A stretch of 64,000 bases of DNA from an uncultured Poribacteria bacterium (GCA_958296135.2 CATQHZ020000001.1:864001-928000), one strand, 5' to 3'. Positions 17,793-23,637 are shown, counted from the stretch's first letter. Notes: a model not told the origin generated them from the sequence alone. Made by a program: numbers and translations.

Positions 17793-18851
17793 GTGAACCA
17801 GATGGCAGACAAAATATATCGTATCGGGATTATTGGCTGCGGTGGCATGGGCCGTTCGCATGCCCGGAATTGGGCAAGCACTGGACGCGCCGAGGTTGTC
17901 ACTGCATCGGACATCAGTGCTGCATCCGCTGCAAAGTTTGCTGAGGAATTCTCACTGCCGACGCACTACGCGGATTTCGGAGAGATGTGCGATAAGGAAG
18001 AGTTGGACATTGTGAGCATCACGACGTGGCAGAGCGTTCGTGCCGAGCCGACTATCGCTGCTGCGGCAAGCGGCGTGCTAGGGGTTATCACCGAGAAGCC
18101 GATGGCTGCTTCTGTTGGCGATGCGCAAGACATGATGGACGTTTGTGAGAAACACGGCGTGAAGCTTGTTGTCGGGCACCAACGGCGGTTTAGCCCGCAA
18201 AACTGCGAGGCGCGGCGGCTTATCCAAGAGGGCGCGATCGGCGAGCCACAGGCGATGCTTCGCCGCGATGGGCACGGCTTACTGAATCGTGGCACACACG
18301 AGCTTGATGAGATGCGCTATATCCTCGGTGACCCGGAACCGCTGTGGCTTATCGGGCAAGTGGCCCGGCGCACCGACCGGTGGGAACGCCGAGTCCGATG
18401 CGAAGACCTTTGCATGGCGGAAATCTGCTTTGAAGGTGGCATCCGCGGCGTTTACGAGAGCGATTTGCCGGAACCTGCACTCCGAGGCGATGTCGTCTAC
18501 GGAGACGATGGCCAGCTCCGCCGCGGGGAAAACGGAACGATTGAGCTGCTCAATAGCAAAGCCGCGGGCTGGCAGGTGATTGCGCCGCGCCAGAGTGAAC
18601 CGAATCAGTTTGACGAGATGTTGGCTTGGATCGAAGGCGATATTGACGAGCATCGCAACGCCGGCAAGCATGGGCTCTGCACGATAGAGATGCTGATGGC
18701 GATTTATGAATCGTTGCGGATTAAGAACGTCGTGACGTTCCCGCTGACGACGCGCCCGAATCCGTTGGATTTGCTGGTGGAGGGTGGCGCATTGCCGGTG
18801 TTCGTTGAGGGCCGGTATGACATCCGTGCGCCGTTCCCGGAACAGCAGTAG
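17793..18851 (+). CDS. Gfo/Idh/MocA family oxidoreductase
   Basis: Motifs GIIGCGGMG..H, EKPMA, GHQRRF and GTH..D. Confidence 0.9.
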   Translation: MNQMADKIYRIGIIGCGGMGRSHARNWASTGRAEVVTASDISAASAAKFAEEFSLPTHYADFGEMCDKEELDIVSITTWQSVRAEPTIAAAASGVLGVITEKPMAASVGDAQDMMDVCEKHGVKLVVGHQRRFSPQNCEARRLIQEGAIGEPQAMLRRDGHGLLNRGTHELDEMRYILGDPEPLWLIGQVARRTDRWERRVRCEDLCMAEICFEGGIRGVYESDLPEPALRGDVVYGDDGQLRRGENGTIELLNSKAAGWQVIAPRQSEPNQFDEMLAWIEGDIDEHRNAGKHGLCTIEMLMAIYESLRIKNVVTFPLTTRPNPLDLLVEGGALPVFVEGRYDIRAPFPEQQ

Positions 18852-18854
18852 GAG

Positions 18855-19597
18855 AGCCCTCCTGGGGGACAGGTTTTCCGTCGCGCGACGGTGAAAGGGG
18901 CCTCTTTCGCGCGAGGGTGAAAATGCGTCTTAGTCCGTAGGGCGCGGTCCTGTGCTGCGCCATGCGTCGATCAATCGAGGTGAATGGCGAGGAGCAGGTC
19001 TTCGCGCGAGGGTGAAAAGGGCCCCTTAGTCCGTAGGGCGCGGTCCTGTGCCGCGCCATGCTGCGGTCTGCGGAGGAAATGCGGTAGTCCGTGGGGTTTT
19101 GGCGGTTTTTGTGTGGGTCGAGAGATCGCGAGGGACAGTGGACATCTCTGCAGCGAGGCGGCAGAGATGACAAAGTTTCGGCGTAACGGCCCTCGCGCTA
19201 CGGTAGAAGGAGCGGTTTTGGGGGTCGGTGAAAAGGGCCCCTTAGCCCGTAGGGCGCGGTCCTGTGCCGCGCCGTGCGTCGATCTGCAGAGAAGAGTAGC
19301 GCAGTCCTGGGGCTTCTGTCGTTTTTTGTGTGGTTCGAGGGATCGCGAGGGACAGGCCCTCGCGCTACGGTACTAAGGGGCCGTTTTGTGTGGATCGAGA
19401 GATCGCGAGGGACAGGCCCTCGCGCTACGGTGAAAAGGGGCCGATGGTGGAAGGGGCTGTTTTGAGGGATCAGGGGATCGCGAGGGGAACCCTCGGCGAT
19501 TCGTGATCGCCGGGCCCTCGCGCTACGGAAGAAGGGATGCTACGGTGAAAAGGGGCCGGTGTATCGAACATCGAGACCAGGAGGTCTCTCCTACCGG
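18855..19597. repeat. Large REP mosaic (families A, B, C with loop inserts)
   Basis: Three family C copies, several family A copies (plain and with either insert type), and one family B copy at about 19571. Confidence 0.9.
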
Positions 19598-19632
19598 AAA
19601 ATGGGAGAATTAAGAAGATTGCAATTTTAATG

Positions 19633-19661
19633 TTGACAATTGCACAAAAATGTGGTATACT
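19633..19661 (+). promoter_or_regulatory. Consensus-like promoter for the leader and surface protein gene
   Basis: TTGACA-N17-TATACT with extended -10 TG. Confidence 0.75.
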
Positions 19662-19726
19662 ATGCTATGCTGTAACTGATTTGGGCGAGATGTGAAATGT
19701 CGCCCCTTACGTCTAGGAGAACGAAC

Positions 19727-19897
19727 GTGAAAACTCAACAGGCTTTCATTACGATGGATAACCCTATCCGTCCGAATAGCACCGGTGCATTGACGCTGCA
19801 GCTGCCGTGGCTGCGCGCGGTGTTCACGTTCGCGCGCGGTGTTGTGACACTGCGTTCTCCTGAAACACTCGTACCCCCCCCCCTTTACATATATTAA
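19727..19897 (+). CDS. Putative leader ORF (56 aa) containing a C10 tract
   Basis: AGGAGA RBS (19715-19720) 6 nt before GTG; the ORF ends ...LVPPPLYIY* just after the poly-C tract. Confidence 0.5.
   Translation: MKTQQAFITMDNPIRPNSTGALTLQLPWLRAVFTFARGVVTLRSPETLVPPPLYIY
19874..19883 (+). repeat. Poly-C homopolymer (C10), candidate slipped-strand phase-variation tract
   Basis: gtaCCCCCCCCCCtttac; the longest G/C homopolymer I noticed in the window. Confidence 0.8.
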
Positions 19898-19976
19898 CCA
19901 TTGCGAGCTCGGTAGGAAGGCGATCCGGGGGACACCCCTGCCCACTTCCGCTGCAGAATTCCCTTTTAGAGCCCAG

Positions 19977-20000
19977 GCGCGCTTTCCAAGCGCGCTTTTC
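19977..20000 (+). terminator. Hairpin followed by a short U-run inside the leader (possible attenuator)
   Basis: GCGCGCTT-TCC-AAGCGCGC-TTTTC. Confidence 0.45.
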
Positions 20001-20148
20001 GTGTTGTTGCGTAGGTACTTCTTGCGCTCGGGGAAGGCATCGGGACGAGGGGATTTCTCTCAGGTGGGCAGGCATCGCAATCGGCTAGCACGCACGGCAC
20101 TGCCGCAACCGGTGCGGTGCCGCGCCATAAATTGAATGAGGAATTTAA

Positions 20149-23100
20149 ATGATGATGAAAACTTTTTTGAACGCTTACGTTTTTCTGTTCCTTGTTGGGG
20201 TCGTCTTCATGGCTGCCCCGATAGCCGCGCAAGCGCAAGAAGATACCACGCCTCCGAGACCAATCACTTATGTTCCGGGTGAACAATATCCGCTCTCGTT
20301 CGTGAATGCAGCCGGTGCGACGTTGCCCTATGCACCGCATACCGGGCGTTCTCGCACTGCACGTGTGGTCAGAGACTGCAATGGGTATCCGTTTGATACG
20401 ACGTTCGGAGCTGCTTTCGCTGTGTTGTGTGATGCAGTGGATACGGAAACGTTCTACTCCACTCCTGAGCCGTGGGGGGTTGCCTATTACGGTGTCGGCG
20501 ATACCATCTATCTTCGTTGGGAATTTGACGAAAATGTGACGGTGACCGGCACGCCGAAATTGGAATTCTGGTTTAAGTCACATTCTCTCGCCGTCGGCGG
20601 TGACGGCCACCCGGGCTCGCGCTGCGCAACTCTCAAAGCCGGTGAGGGAAATGGCTCGAGCAACACACTTACCTTTGAATACACGGTGGAGCCGGGTGAC
20701 TATAACCCGGGTCTCACAATTGTGTCAGCGTTTTGTAGGCCCCATGACTTCAGCATAACAAATAATCATGACTTCAGCATAACAGATAATGTTGGCAACG
20801 AATTTGATCCAATCTCTCTAGGGGATTTTGGGTGGTTTGTAGCAAAACCGACGGCTAGAAGAGTTGATGGGATAAGCCCGTCGGTGAGAATCACCGGCGT
20901 GATATCGGCAGACTCTGAGACGCACGATGGGGATTACTTGAAACAGGAAGTCTTTGTTGAGACGCTTGAGCATAGTGTGTTACAGGCGGCCTCTCCCGTG
21001 CGCGTTTCTGGCGTGAAGACAGGCCCCTTTACGGTGGAAATCAGATTTTACGAAAACTTGGAAATACTCCCTTATCCAACACATGTTCTTGAGAGGACTG
21101 ATGTCGCAGAGGAGCCCGTGGGCTTTGAGGGAGATGACATCCAGGTGACTGATGCGAGTGGCAACGTGTTGGCTTGGCATGTCTCACCACCGACGTTTAT
21201 CGGGCTGGACCATCGTGCTACATTGCGCGGGGCCCATGGTCACGAGGGCCGTGCTGGGAATAAGGCCTATGTGGGCGAAGCAATCTGGAAGCCCTCGTTC
21301 GCGGTTTACAAAGTTACCATTACACCGACTGATTTTGATGGCGGTGAGGTGAGCATCCAAGTGCCTGCAGGTGCCACGCAGGACATCGCCGGTAACCCCA
21401 ATCACGTATCCAATACGTTAACCGTGTCTGTAGGGGACTTGAGCCCCCCGGTCGTGCAAAGCCTCCGGTTCGTTGAAACCGCAAGCGAGATATACACTGT
21501 CGGCGATGAGATTGCGGTTGAGGTGACGTTCGACGAAGACGGTGTCCGTCACGATGGCGGTGCGGCCAATCCGCCGTATCTGACGCTCTATTTAGGGGAG
21601 AGGACGCTGGCGAATGAACGGCATGCGACGTGGCAGCCGAACTCGGAACGCACGGGTTCAACGGTAGTGACGTTCGTGTATCCTATCCAATTCGGAGATG
21701 CGGCTGAGTCGGTGAGTGTGAAAGCGACGGGGATTTCGGTTCCTGTGGGGGTGACGGTGAGCGATGCGGATGGGAACCAGATTGTTGGGGCATCGTCTCG
21801 GGCTGAGCCGCCTGGGACTGCGCCGGATGAGGAGACACCTGCGTCGGATATGCAGTTGCGCTTTGAGGATGCCACCTTGCGTGAGATTCGTGAAACGGAA
21901 GAGAAAAAACCTGTCCACACCATTTTCCCGGTGCTAGAGACGGCGGATCCGAAGTCTCCCGCCTCCGATGTGCCGCGCAGCCCGTTGGTGTTCAACGAGT
22001 TGGGCAATGGCAGTGGTGCTGCAAATGACTGGCTGGAATTGCGGAATGTCACGGGTTCGGCTGTCTCCTTGAAAGACTGGGAGCTCAGCGTCGTGCAAGA
22101 TGACAAAAAGGAAGATACGTCGCTCATTGTGTTTCCGGATGCCAGCGTGCCGGCGAACGGCCTGCTGTTGGTAACAAACAGCGCGCCAGAGAAAACGCCG
22201 CTGGCGGGTGGTGAGAAGAGAGGGTTGTCGCATGCGTTTTTGGTGGATGCGGGGCTCTCGCTGCCGGATGATGGGAAGTTCCTGTTGATTCTCCGTAATG
22301 CGAAGGATAAGCTTGGCATGAACGCGGCGTTCGTGGATGTCGCCGGTGGCGGTGGCAGTGACACGGATGCGTTCGTCCGCGAGCAGACAGGCGACTACGA
22401 TACGCACGTCTGGCCGTTGCAAGTGCTACAAGCTCCCGGTGGTGACACCGAAGACGCGCTAAGTTCGGGCAAAGTGTGGCAGCGCGCGAAAGCGGATATC
22501 ATTGGGTATCATAAAGATGCCTGGGCGGAAGCCGCCTTCACCGGTATCGGCTATGATAGGAATGTTTCCAAGTCGGCGGCGACAGCAGGCACGCCGGGGT
22601 ATCCGAATGGTGCCGTGAAAACGGCAGCAGCTACGCCGAAGGGTGCTATCACTATCAGCGAAGTCATGTTTGATTCGGGTGGTGGCACGCTGCCGCAGTG
22701 GATAGAACTCTATAATGCGTCCAAAACGGAGGCCCTGAATCTGAATCGGTGGCAGCTGGAGTTCCAGAACGTCGATTCGGAAGACTTGGTAGGGCGGCCG
22801 ATTGTGGCGTTAACGTTGCAGGAGAAGGTGATTCAGCCGAATCAGACGCTGCTGCTCGTCGCGGGTGCTGCGCGTGCCTCGTCGGCGGATGTTTTCCCGG
22901 CCGATAGGGTTTACAATCTGTTGGCTTTGCATCAGCGGAACCTGCGCATCAAGACTGCGCGGGATACGTTCCTGAGTGCCGAGGGCTTCTATCTGAAGTT
23001 GACAGACGGCAATGGTAACCTCGTAGACGAGGTTGGCAACACCGATGGCAATCGTCGGACGAAGGATGCGCCGGCGTGGGCGTTACCGGTGAGTGGCGAG

Positions 23101-23637
23101 GCAGGCGTTCGGAGCTCGCTGATTCGGCGTTACAAGGATAACGTGGCGCGAGATGGGAAGGAGAAGGCCAGCTGGGTCTTGTCTGCGAACATCCGGCAGG
23201 TTGCCACGGGCGAACTCCATTATGGGCATGCGGAGGACATCGGCACGCCGGGGTATCGGAAAGGCGGTGCGTTGCCGGTGGAATTGTCAAGTTTCACCGT
23301 GGCGCGCACGGAGGCCGGTGCGGTTGTCGTGACCTGGACGACTGAGTCTGAGGTGGATAACGCCGGGTTTAACCTGCGTCGGAGTGAGCGGCGCGATAGT
23401 GGGTTCACGCTTTTGAATGCTGCGTTGATTGCGGGTGCTGGCACGACGGGTGAGCGTCAGACGTATACGTATATGGATACGTCCGCGAAGCCGGGTGTTG
23501 CGTATTACTATCAGATTGAGGAGGTCGCGTTTGATGGCCGGCCGGCGACGTTAGTGACGCGTCGGTTGCGGGGCCCTGTTTCACCTGCGCATCGGCAGTT
23601 GACGATGTTTGGTGCTGTGAAGCAGCAGGCGAAATAA
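20149..23637 (+). CDS. Large secreted or surface protein with Ig-like and two lamin-tail domains
   Basis: Signal peptide (..AAQAQ); VFNEL...DWLELRN and ISEVM...QWIELYN lamin-tail motifs; GTPG motifs; LPVELSSF..W.TESE.DNAGFN C-terminal domain. Confidence 0.85.
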   Translation: MMMKTFLNAYVFLFLVGVVFMAAPIAAQAQEDTTPPRPITYVPGEQYPLSFVNAAGATLPYAPHTGRSRTARVVRDCNGYPFDTTFGAAFAVLCDAVDTETFYSTPEPWGVAYYGVGDTIYLRWEFDENVTVTGTPKLEFWFKSHSLAVGGDGHPGSRCATLKAGEGNGSSNTLTFEYTVEPGDYNPGLTIVSAFCRPHDFSITNNHDFSITDNVGNEFDPISLGDFGWFVAKPTARRVDGISPSVRITGVISADSETHDGDYLKQEVFVETLEHSVLQAASPVRVSGVKTGPFTVEIRFYENLEILPYPTHVLERTDVAEEPVGFEGDDIQVTDASGNVLAWHVSPPTFIGLDHRATLRGAHGHEGRAGNKAYVGEAIWKPSFAVYKVTITPTDFDGGEVSIQVPAGATQDIAGNPNHVSNTLTVSVGDLSPPVVQSLRFVETASEIYTVGDEIAVEVTFDEDGVRHDGGAANPPYLTLYLGERTLANERHATWQPNSERTGSTVVTFVYPIQFGDAAESVSVKATGISVPVGVTVSDADGNQIVGASSRAEPPGTAPDEETPASDMQLRFEDATLREIRETEEKKPVHTIFPVLETADPKSPASDVPRSPLVFNELGNGSGAANDWLELRNVTGSAVSLKDWELSVVQDDKKEDTSLIVFPDASVPANGLLLVTNSAPEKTPLAGGEKRGLSHAFLVDAGLSLPDDGKFLLILRNAKDKLGMNAAFVDVAGGGGSDTDAFVREQTGDYDTHVWPLQVLQAPGGDTEDALSSGKVWQRAKADIIGYHKDAWAEAAFTGIGYDRNVSKSAATAGTPGYPNGAVKTAAATPKGAITISEVMFDSGGGTLPQWIELYNASKTEALNLNRWQLEFQNVDSEDLVGRPIVALTLQEKVIQPNQTLLLVAGAARASSADVFPADRVYNLLALHQRNLRIKTARDTFLSAEGFYLKLTDGNGNLVDEVGNTDGNRRTKDAPAWALPVSGEAGVRSSLIRRYKDNVARDGKEKASWVLSANIRQVATGELHYGHAEDIGTPGYRKGGALPVELSSFTVARTEAGAVVVTWTTESEVDNAGFNLRRSERRDSGFTLLNAALIAGAGTTGERQTYTYMDTSAKPGVAYYYQIEEVAFDGRPATLVTRRLRGPVSPAHRQLTMFGAVKQQAK

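Follow-up and report, generated by a model that had tools for sequence, protein, structure and literature searches.

A poly-C tract inside a recurrent upstream reading frame as a probable frame switch ahead of poribacterial surface-protein genes

Poribacteria are dominant uncultivated symbionts of sponges, in whose biology host recognition, the avoidance of phagocytosis and phage pressure are still to be explained. Here we analyze a 64,000-nt stretch of DNA from an uncultured Poribacteria bacterium (GCA_958296135.2 CATQHZ020000001.1:864001-928000), which we call the window and whose coordinates are counted from its first letter. In this window, a leader of ~480 nt lies between a strong promoter and a gene for a 1162-amino-acid lamin-tail protein, and the leader contains a short upstream open reading frame (uORF) that crosses a run of ten C residues. 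We consider it probable that the run mediates slipped-strand phase variation through the uORF, by anti-termination and/or translational coupling. The anatomy of the leader, its recurrence and its frame logic are direct observations; because the same device recurs before many such genes, its role is most likely that of a random on/off switch. The initial annotation of the window had proposed phase variation through a uORF, and this interpretation is supported by the comparative sequence evidence given below, those of its suggested checks that could be computed all favoring it, and is experimentally unproven. The elements of the leader and of its gene are listed here.

19633-19661, + strand: sigma-70-type promoter TTGACA-N17-(TG)TATACT with an extended -10 TG, matching 11 of 12 consensus positions
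19715-19720, + strand: ribosome-binding site (RBS) AGGAGA of the uORF, read from the sequence
19727-19897, + strand: uORF with a GTG start at 19727, 56 amino acids in the assembled C10 state
19874-19883, + strand: poly-C tract (C10), where slippage is proposed; its homologs in the 26 copies described below are all C7-C10
19895-19897, + strand: TAA within TTAAC, stop of the short frame f0 (putative OFF)
19937-20072, + strand: long-range pairing of CCTGCCCACTT (19937-19947) with AGGTGGGCAGG (20062-20072), enclosing inner hairpins
19975-20010, + strand: intrinsic-terminator-like hairpin AGGCGCGCTT/AAGCGCGCTT (19975-19997, 10-bp stem) with the T-rich tail TTCGTGTTGT, from a pattern scan
20086-20088, + strand: TAG, stop of frame f2 (C11 or C8), by frame arithmetic
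20096-20121, + strand: hairpin of GGCAC (20096-20100) and GTGCC (20117-20121), just 5' of the main RBS
20133-20135, + strand: TGA, stop of the long frame f1 (C9 or C12), by frame arithmetic, 2 nt 5' of the main RBS and 13 nt 5' of the ATG
20138-20142, + strand: RBS GAGGA of the main gene
20149-23637, + strand: main gene, ATG at 20149, 1162 amino acids, with a signal-peptide-like N-terminus and lamin-tail domains

The frames after the tract are numbered f0, f1 and f2 from the TAA of the (G)TTAAC that follows it, this TAA defining f0. The C10 run is within the range in which a homopolymeric G/C tract can slip (~7-8 or more). Ribosomes leaving it in the assembled state would stop at 19895, those on a C9 or C12 template at 20133-20135 and those on a C11 template at 20086-20088, and no tract length at this locus fuses the small ORF to the main ORF. 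The same arithmetic had been set out in the initial annotation, along with the near-consensus promoter, the AGGAGA site, the GTG ORF crossing C10, the three paired elements and the GAGGA site of the 1162-amino-acid gene; all of these are where that annotation placed them. The promoter is the sole promoter-like site that a pattern scan finds within 18800-20400. Of the 11 positions of CCTGCCCACTT and AGGTGGGCAGG, 10 are complementary, and the minimum-free-energy fold joins the two segments, a pairing common only to the window copy and a 93%-identical paralog, and the inner hairpin with its T-run scores as terminator-like. The 23-nt sequence of this hairpin is present at ~15 further sites in the genome. 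As a whole, the leader folds moderately better than shuffled versions (z = -2.33), with 1 of 100 shuffles folding equally well. An Rfam scan of 19000-20600 gave best E-values of 1.3-4.2, every match falling far under its gathering score, and neither Pfam nor NCBIfam gave a family for the small-ORF peptide.

The leader is one member of a family. A search of the whole source genome (G000, 5.19 Mb in 4 contigs) returned the 93%-identical twin together with further copies of ~67% identity, and an nhmmer profile search of the same genome gave 12 full-length leaders, at least 2 diverged ones (d1 and d2) and some partial matches. All 12 full copies share the promoter, the RBS and GTG of the small ORF, a C8-C10 tract at the same place and then (G)TTAAC, and the consensus of their small ORFs is VNTxFRADxPIRLQxSVKATxxPPxLRAVSxFAFAxPVDDALDRITPP. 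Downstream of each copy is an ORF of 1160-1450 amino acids that begins with a signal-peptide-like segment and carries lamin-tail domains (PF00932), in some cases also Big_12. Among 41 genomes of the order, leader DNA was found only in two congeners (G001 and G002), the others giving just promoter matches. We fetched one copy from G001 and at least 11 from G002, a twelfth G002 copy being found later. The initial annotation had proposed a search of related genomes for the leader upstream of other surface genes; it recurs ahead of large secreted-protein genes, with 14 copies in the source genome and 12 in the two congeners, and these 26 (14 from the source genome, 11 from G002 and 1 from G001) form the set used below. 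Identity between leaders of different species is only 66-74%. The congener leaders nonetheless keep the same promoter, the small-ORF start, the core peptide motif QPPRLRAVSPFARPVDD, TTTA-C7..C10 and GTTAAC. Across the set, 26 of 26 copies retain a strong promoter, a GTG or ATG with which the small ORF begins, A-C7..C10 and, after this tract, a TAA in (G)TTAA(C/T); the RBS is kept in nearly all, two or three G002 copies being without a clear one.

Several observations concern individual parts of these leaders. The same strong promoter (TTGACA-N17-TGGTATACT) stands at C1:4000893 of the source genome (C1 being the main contig; - strand), ahead of sequence resembling a tRNA gene cluster, which suggests that it is the general strong promoter of this organism. 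A strongly conserved CTCGG(C/T)AGGAAGG followed by a run of G4-G6 lies 25-30 nt past the TAA in 24 leaders (window ~19908-19920); it resembles a Shine-Dalgarno sequence or a GGA protein-binding motif and has no start codon after it. A 66-nt unit, CATGTTTCCGCCGCAATCGG..., whose length is a multiple of 3, occurs once in p6 and p12, twice in p9 (locus L016, 647-778) and three times in p10 (L017, 643-840), in oriented leader coordinates; here p-numbers denote paralog copies and L-numbers individual loci.

The frames in which these copies are assembled differ. The initial annotation had named an invariant tract length across reads and strains as an outcome that would count against phase variation; the tract varies from C7 to C10 among the 26 copies and places the small ORF in all three frames (f0, f1 and f2 in 11, 8 and 7 copies). 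In 15 copies the assembled frame stops within ~45 nt past the tract, in 7 it is the longest frame and in 4 it is intermediate, a distribution that, judged from the assembled tracts, is a mixed picture of putative ON and OFF states. The longest frame is f2 in most copies and f1 in the window copy, p3 and p5, and stays open for 230-600 nt. Between tract and ATG, the 24 copies whose small ORF is not fused to the gene (all except d1 and d2) hold 88 stop triplets in f0 (defining TAAs left out), 97 in f1 and only 35 in f2. In about half of these 24 copies, the long frame ends at the main start or within ~60 nt of it: its stop overlaps the ATG as ATGA in p8, L037 and L038, abuts it in L034 and lies 13-61 nt 5' of it in the window copy, p2, p3, p5, p10, p11 and L039. 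The distance is 87-324 nt in p4, p6, p7, L040, L041, L043, L044 and L045. The ATGA overlaps alone are not significant, because all main genes begin with ATGA and any arrival in the +1 phase stops there; the arrival phases of the long frame look random (4 in +1, 5 in +2 and 1 in phase 0).

The two diverged copies connect the leader to a more familiar arrangement. In d2 (C9), the homologous small ORF MKYLSTLTLAAPIGRL... passes the tract in f2 directly into the signal segment and on into a 1281-amino-acid protein, for which NCBIfam has no family. In d1 (C8), the small ORF ends at the TAA of GTTAAC. Neither has another start codon ahead of the hydrophobic segment, and by their sequence we interpret d1 and d2 as what is ordinary in-gene phase variation. 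The fusion through the tract in d2 identifies f2 as the probable productive (ON) frame of the family. The near-identical pair p6/p7 differs by 26 substitutions and 3 internal indels in 2.3 kb, and every one of the 3 indels falls in a homopolymer; the C tract is among these runs, as is a G tract in the coding sequence. The latter is a second homopolymer ~200 nt into the coding region of p6 (L013, C1:268329) and p7 (L014, C1:4477656), with p6 open at G8 and p7 frameshifted at G9.

Between the small ORF and the gene, an intrinsic terminator is predicted. A 94-nt block is common to 22 leaders and exceeds the peptide in conservation, and its consensus fold (-37.5 kcal/mol) consists of a 5-bp hairpin and then an 18-bp hairpin with a T-run after it; 5 of the 23 predicted pairs show compensatory changes. 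The shared hairpin is also scored as terminator-like in L019 by a pattern scan. In place of this block, another hairpin with a T-run is found in the window copy and its twin; the compensatory changes, for which the initial annotation had proposed to look, are those of the hairpin shared by the 22 leaders. No mutually exclusive antiterminator/terminator pairing is conserved near the tract or in the consensus fold of the 3' block, and with no conserved alternative helix we do not class the leader as a classical attenuator; it may act in an attenuator-like manner, through translation across the predicted hairpin. Pairing of the C tract with the conserved downstream G4-G6 was also considered and rejected, as RNAalifold on 24 copies gives no such helix and only 4 weak pairs elsewhere (-0.8 kcal/mol). 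A reverse-strand promoter with the tract in its spacer was likewise rejected for this family: it would need a spacing of 19-21 nt, and promoter, ORF and gene follow one another clearly on the + strand.

Leaders of the same layout and unrelated sequence occur in other genera. The pattern TTAC7+ N8-24 GTTAA is present in 26 of the 61 genomes of the family, in all six genera, and the reversed control pattern in 0 of the 61; G076 has 23 matches, and tracts reach C12-C17 in G058. The TTA before the tract and the GTTAA after it, which recur at unrelated loci, could provide a TAA stop on either strand, which is one possibility for their retention. We fetched 20 of these sites from five other genomes. 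G004, G009 and G058 have leader families of their own, each with a promoter, an ORF of ~45-55 codons over C8-C15, a TAA that follows at once and alternative frames that stay open for long. In G004 there is a frame that ends 19 nt 5' of the ATG; of the frames in G009, the stop of one overlaps the ATG as ATGA and that of another lies 2 nt before it. Conservation of a stop beside the main start, which the initial annotation had put forward as a check, holds in 4 of 5 independent leader types and is not universal among copies. Shuffle tests on the five leader types combined to a Fisher p of 0.005 when each family was represented by its stronger member and to 0.044 when it was represented by the weaker one. 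The genes behind the leaders of these other genera encode signal-peptide proteins with immunoglobulin (Ig)-like domains and, behind the ATGA-overlap leader of G009, a restriction enzyme with Mrr_cat_2 and ResIII domains. Further tracts lie in frame inside N6_N4_Mtase DNA methylase genes of relatives, and from these positions restriction-modification may be phase-variable in sponge symbionts. The loci of the restriction-enzyme leader and the methylase tracts are L067, L068, L069 and L070 (G009) and L062 (G004).

Long G/C runs are also in excess across the source genome. The main contig has 558, 58, 28, 43, 10, 1 and 1 G/C runs of lengths 6 to 12, against a first-order Markov expectation of 1231, 294, 70, 17, 4 and 1 for lengths 6 to 11. 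Runs of 6-8 are therefore depleted and those of 9-10 in excess, and A/T runs decay smoothly. Only ~17 of the 83 G/C runs of at least 8 are at the lamin-tail protein family. Genes associated with tracts encode secreted proteins with lamin-tail or Ig-like domains, N6_N4_Mtase and Mrr/ResIII proteins, and an excess of long tracts at surface and restriction-modification genes is the mark of a genome with contingency loci; together, the tract counts suggest a large set of phase-variable loci in Poribacteria. About 9 long genes of the source genome are split at a tract, and joining the parts needs +1 in 5 and -1 in 4. Such sites on C1 include 39277, 171076, 246436, 1313638, 1327189, 2642094, 2770827, 2822657 and 4205321; the upstream part is 1-3.5 kb, the downstream part 0.7-2.5 kb, and stops lie 0-16 nt away on both sides of the tract. 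In a six-paralog family, MDNLSACLSGFNYWLRRGGG... (C1: 195552, 601424, 670244, 1453394, 2953827 and 4145681), after ~17 codons of the ORF comes a sense-strand poly-G, which is immediately followed by a TAA; the frame is open in the G10 copy, and 4 of the 5 G9 copies lack one base for it. Leader-like flanks TTACTATACGGCTGTTAACC also accompany tracts at C1:2331378 and C1:3733660/3733822, which stand at the 5' end of very long frames and are apparently in frame with open frames of >6 kb and ~5.8 kb. A low-complexity array of A-separated C runs on one strand (C8, C8, C12, C11...; C1:3588040-3588125) is unlike the isolated tracts.

The mechanism that we favor would work as follows. A strong, probably constitutive promoter would give the leader RNA, and the small ORF, which has a good RBS, would be translated across the poly-C tract. 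Slipped-strand mispairing during replication would change the tract by +/-1 C and with it the frame of the ribosomes that leave it. In one frame, ribosomes would stop at the TAA 12-20 nt past the tract, and the C10 state of the window (19895-19897) is predicted to be OFF in this sense. The remainder of the leader would then be untranslated and fold; the hairpin and T-run (19975-20010), possibly helped by Rho, would end most transcripts, and the main RBS would be poorly served. In the ON state (C9 or C12 at this locus), ribosomes would cross the leader as far as the TGA 2 nt before the main RBS, blocking formation of the terminator and supplying the main start. The C11 state may be intermediate, as its stop would lie past the hairpin and 60 nt short of the ATG. 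Slippage, termination and coupling are the steps that we infer. More tentatively, and at somewhat less than an even chance, the leader could be an old and portable poribacterial 'frame-switch leader' module that can be placed before any gene (variable secreted proteins here, a restriction enzyme in another genus), giving heritable stochastic control with the coding sequence untouched; its parts would be a constitutive promoter, a throw-away ORF of ~50 codons with its poly-C tract, a TAA that follows at once in one frame, a long frame for read-through and a terminator. The three phases of the tract may then have three outputs: terminated, anti-terminated only, and anti-terminated with translational coupling.

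A number of observations weigh against this mechanism. The open frame of the window copy (249 of 268 nt stop-free) is not significant by dinucleotide shuffling (p = 0.19-0.20), and single-leader open frames are weak in general (p 0.01-0.40) because the leaders have few stop triplets in any frame; the weight of evidence lies with the recurrence in paralogs and relatives rather than with the window copy alone. A nominal chi-square on the 88/97/35 stop counts is itself overstated, since the copies are related. In p9, p12, L035, L036 and L042, the long frame continues, out of frame, for ~100 nt inside the main gene, and this overrun could hinder initiation instead of helping it. The closest approach of any frame to the ATG is 160-215 nt in p4, p6 and p7, and the leader frames of G058 stop ~180 nt short of the ATG. 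The terminator is predicted, and the hairpin in the window differs in sequence from the one that has covariation. Constraint on the amino acids of the small ORF is weak: the ratio of nonsynonymous to synonymous differences (pN/pS) is 0.82 in its frame and 1.05 and 1.00 in the shifted frames, taken over 22 of the 26 sequences (d1, d2, L039 and L045 align poorly and were left out). The third codon positions are slightly more variable, most indels are multiples of 3, and the reading frame and core motif (...LRAV..FAR.V..) are kept across copies; this pattern of constraint fits an ORF that may need to be translated while its product matters little. The tract lengths are the consensus of metagenome assemblies and may be off by one. 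A search for sequencing runs that contain the stretch gave four, all from one sample of one study and none of them RNA. Among their contigs, the sole one covering the tract (481 nt, run X1, 19570-20050) has C10 and no difference from the window; in runs X2-X4, 19656-19940 is uncovered at 97% likeness. No indels were reported. Scans of metagenome contigs gave 0 matches to a degenerate pattern of the main leader type and 0 to the conserved 3'-block motif. Finally, MutS and MutL are intact, so slippage would not be boosted by loss of mismatch repair.

Other explanations of the leader have to be set beside this one. Because a C run is read as consecutive prolines (PP or PPP), the leader might be a physiological attenuator in which pausing reports elongation factor P (EF-P), the supply of prolyl-tRNA or the modification of tRNA-Pro and so sets the terminator, the length differences being incidental. 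In every copy the tract would indeed be read as 2-3 Pro codons, the combination of a small ORF with a terminator-like hairpin behind it is the layout of classic attenuators, the sense strand has C and not G in all five uORF-type leader families, and mgtL/mgtP is a precedent for a leader ORF with proline codons; in its accessible part, a review of Rho names mgtCBR among uORF cases (PMC12360218). We nevertheless regard such a sensor as unlikely. Mixed CCN codons would encode proline as well, yet every copy has a pure C run, and the number of Pro codons is not constant, all three codon phases being used where the ORF meets the tract. Exit frames that vary among copies (11/8/7) would not be tolerated in a sensor, and the tracts of C12-C17 in G058, as well as the same tracts inside methylase and other ORFs and as sense-strand poly-G, also count against it. 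Recoding at the RNA level, by polymerase slippage or +1/-1 frameshifting on tRNA-Pro, would place a fixed fraction in each frame and give a low constitutive level. It would explain why stops lie 0-16 nt around many tracts, so that overlapping frames meet only at the tract as they do at programmed shift sites, and why most tract genes are out of frame in the assembly; CCC-C is also shift-prone for tRNA-Pro. The required shift, however, is not constant (+1 in 5 of the split genes and -1 in 4), the leaders are in all three frames, and the tract has no conserved stimulatory helix around it. Some paralogs, such as d2 and the G10 copy of the six-paralog family, are in frame, as expected for switching at the DNA level, and productive transcriptional slippage is documented mainly for A/T runs. 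We judge recoding improbable on these grounds.

That the small ORF and tract are the remains of an ancestral N-terminal extension, with the main genes expressed whatever the leader frame, is in our estimate quite improbable. Such a relic would agree with the in-gene arrangement of d1/d2, the lack of significance of single-leader open frames, the weakly constrained peptide and the loss of the long frame in p4, p6 and p7. It would not account for an RBS, start, tract and TAA that are kept in 26 copies in three species despite the low identity between species, for unrelated leaders in other genera that repeat the layout, including one before a restriction enzyme, for the depletion of stops in one frame or for a conserved hairpin and T-run with compensatory changes. 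The poly-C could also matter as an RNA element, a loading site for Rho or a site for a poly(C)-binding protein, for which a minimum length and not the frame would count. Poly(C) is the best Rho substrate, Rho is encoded in the genome and the C is on the sense strand in all uORF-type leaders. A strong rut-like C excess 3' of the tract was nonetheless not seen, the C-over-G excess there being mild (C/G 0.9-1.3); moreover, the tract is within an apparently translated ORF with a conserved stop right behind it, and the same type of tract is found in coding regions elsewhere in either orientation. As a replacement for the frame switch we consider this role highly unlikely, and it could coexist with it.

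Compared with known systems, the proposed frame switch combines features that are usually separate. Translational phase variation by homopolymeric G/C tracts is described for surface and restriction-modification genes of Neisseria, Campylobacter, Haemophilus and Helicobacter, according to the accessible parts of three papers (PMC5084427, PMC8355987, PMC5320596). As at those contingency loci, a G/C run of 8-10 would shift the frame, paralogs are in mixed putative ON/OFF frames, the targets are secreted or surface multigene families and DNA methylases, and long runs are in excess genome-wide. Unlike in them, the tract of 12 of the 14 source-genome copies is in a separate upstream ORF, 250-600 nt before the gene; d1 and d2 have the classical in-gene form. 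The poly-C of siaD in N. meningitidis causes a frameshift that leads to a premature translation stop and Rho-dependent intracistronic termination. In the poribacterial leader, a change of frame at poly-C would similarly uncouple translation from transcription and lower the downstream mRNA; whereas siaD, the regulated gene, itself contains the tract, the task would here fall to a dedicated upstream ORF that serves an intact downstream gene. The order of promoter, putatively translated small ORF, terminator-like hairpin or untranslated stretch and gene is that of the trp, tnaC and mgtL/mgtP leaders, in which the position of the ribosome decides read-through. The proposed input differs, being a heritable stochastic change in DNA length and not a metabolite or charged tRNA, and, unlike in trp-type attenuators, no alternative antiterminator pairing was identified; ribosomes translating across the hairpin would be the source of read-through.

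Phase switches that act through leader termination are known, as in C. difficile cwpV. The accessible part of the Rho review lists uORF-dependent termination among its cases and describes invertible elements 5' of E. coli fim and C. difficile flgB that act through Rho (PMC12360218). The leader would resemble fim, flgB and cwpV in that a stochastic change in leader DNA decides whether transcription ends before the gene, and would differ in using replication slippage read out by the translation frame in place of site-specific inversion by a recombinase. A repeat-dependent switch of H. influenzae hmw works through a hairpin in the 5' untranslated region (5'-UTR) and RNase III, and G-repeats of H. 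pylori are targeted by a small RNA, as reported and cited, respectively, in the available portion of one paper (PMC12721329). In both, as here, the repeat is in a long structured leader, outside promoter and gene; those repeats act through RNA structure, processing or small-RNA pairing, whereas the poribacterial tract is in a putatively translated ORF with frame-specific stops and no conserved helix. A Campylobacter translatome preprint, as far as its accessible text goes, has in-gene tracts only, and a term search of a gonococcal repeat survey returned no mention of leaders or upstream ORFs. Searches of open-access papers and bioRxiv gave no report of phase variation for Poribacteria, nor any example of a bacterial uORF with a repeat tract inside it.

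If the proposed mechanism is correct, it would be a fourth route for repeat-tract phase variation, beside promoters, the interior of genes and, more rarely, 5'-UTR structure; it would join contingency loci with leader-peptide attenuation and would allow long genes to be switched without a truncated protein ever being made. A portable frame-switch module, if it exists, would be a mode of phase variation outside the promoter, in-gene and 5'-UTR modes already described, and for sponge symbionts without cultured members it would be the first sign that surface and restriction genes are varied by such leaders. The findings point to a large variable surface repertoire, with at least 14 paralogs, and to variable restriction-modification in Poribacteria.

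The protein behind the window leader, for which NCBIfam has no family, itself belongs to a paralog family of at least 14 members. A comparison of the window gene (20149-23637) with paralogs at L009-L021 (7 aligned paralogs) shows that the C-terminal ~560 amino acids, comprising two lamin-tail domains and a tail, are nearly invariant and that the N-terminal ~600 amino acids are variable. From these alignments, the pattern suggests a variable surface family that may be kept similar by gene conversion or cassette-like exchange.

Two further observations concern the surroundings of the leader and the source genome. Contig C2 (143,886 bp) has a G+C content of 36.8%, as against 54.4% for the main contig, and could represent an element that is foreign or extrachromosomal, or contamination from binning. 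Just 5' of the promoter (window 19300-19560) are several copies of a GC-rich palindromic unit of ~30 nt, GATCGCGAGGGACAGGCCCTCGCGCTACGG, which is highly repeated, as its summed contig depth is 10-200x that of the unique flank; the same unit is also inserted in the leader of L045.

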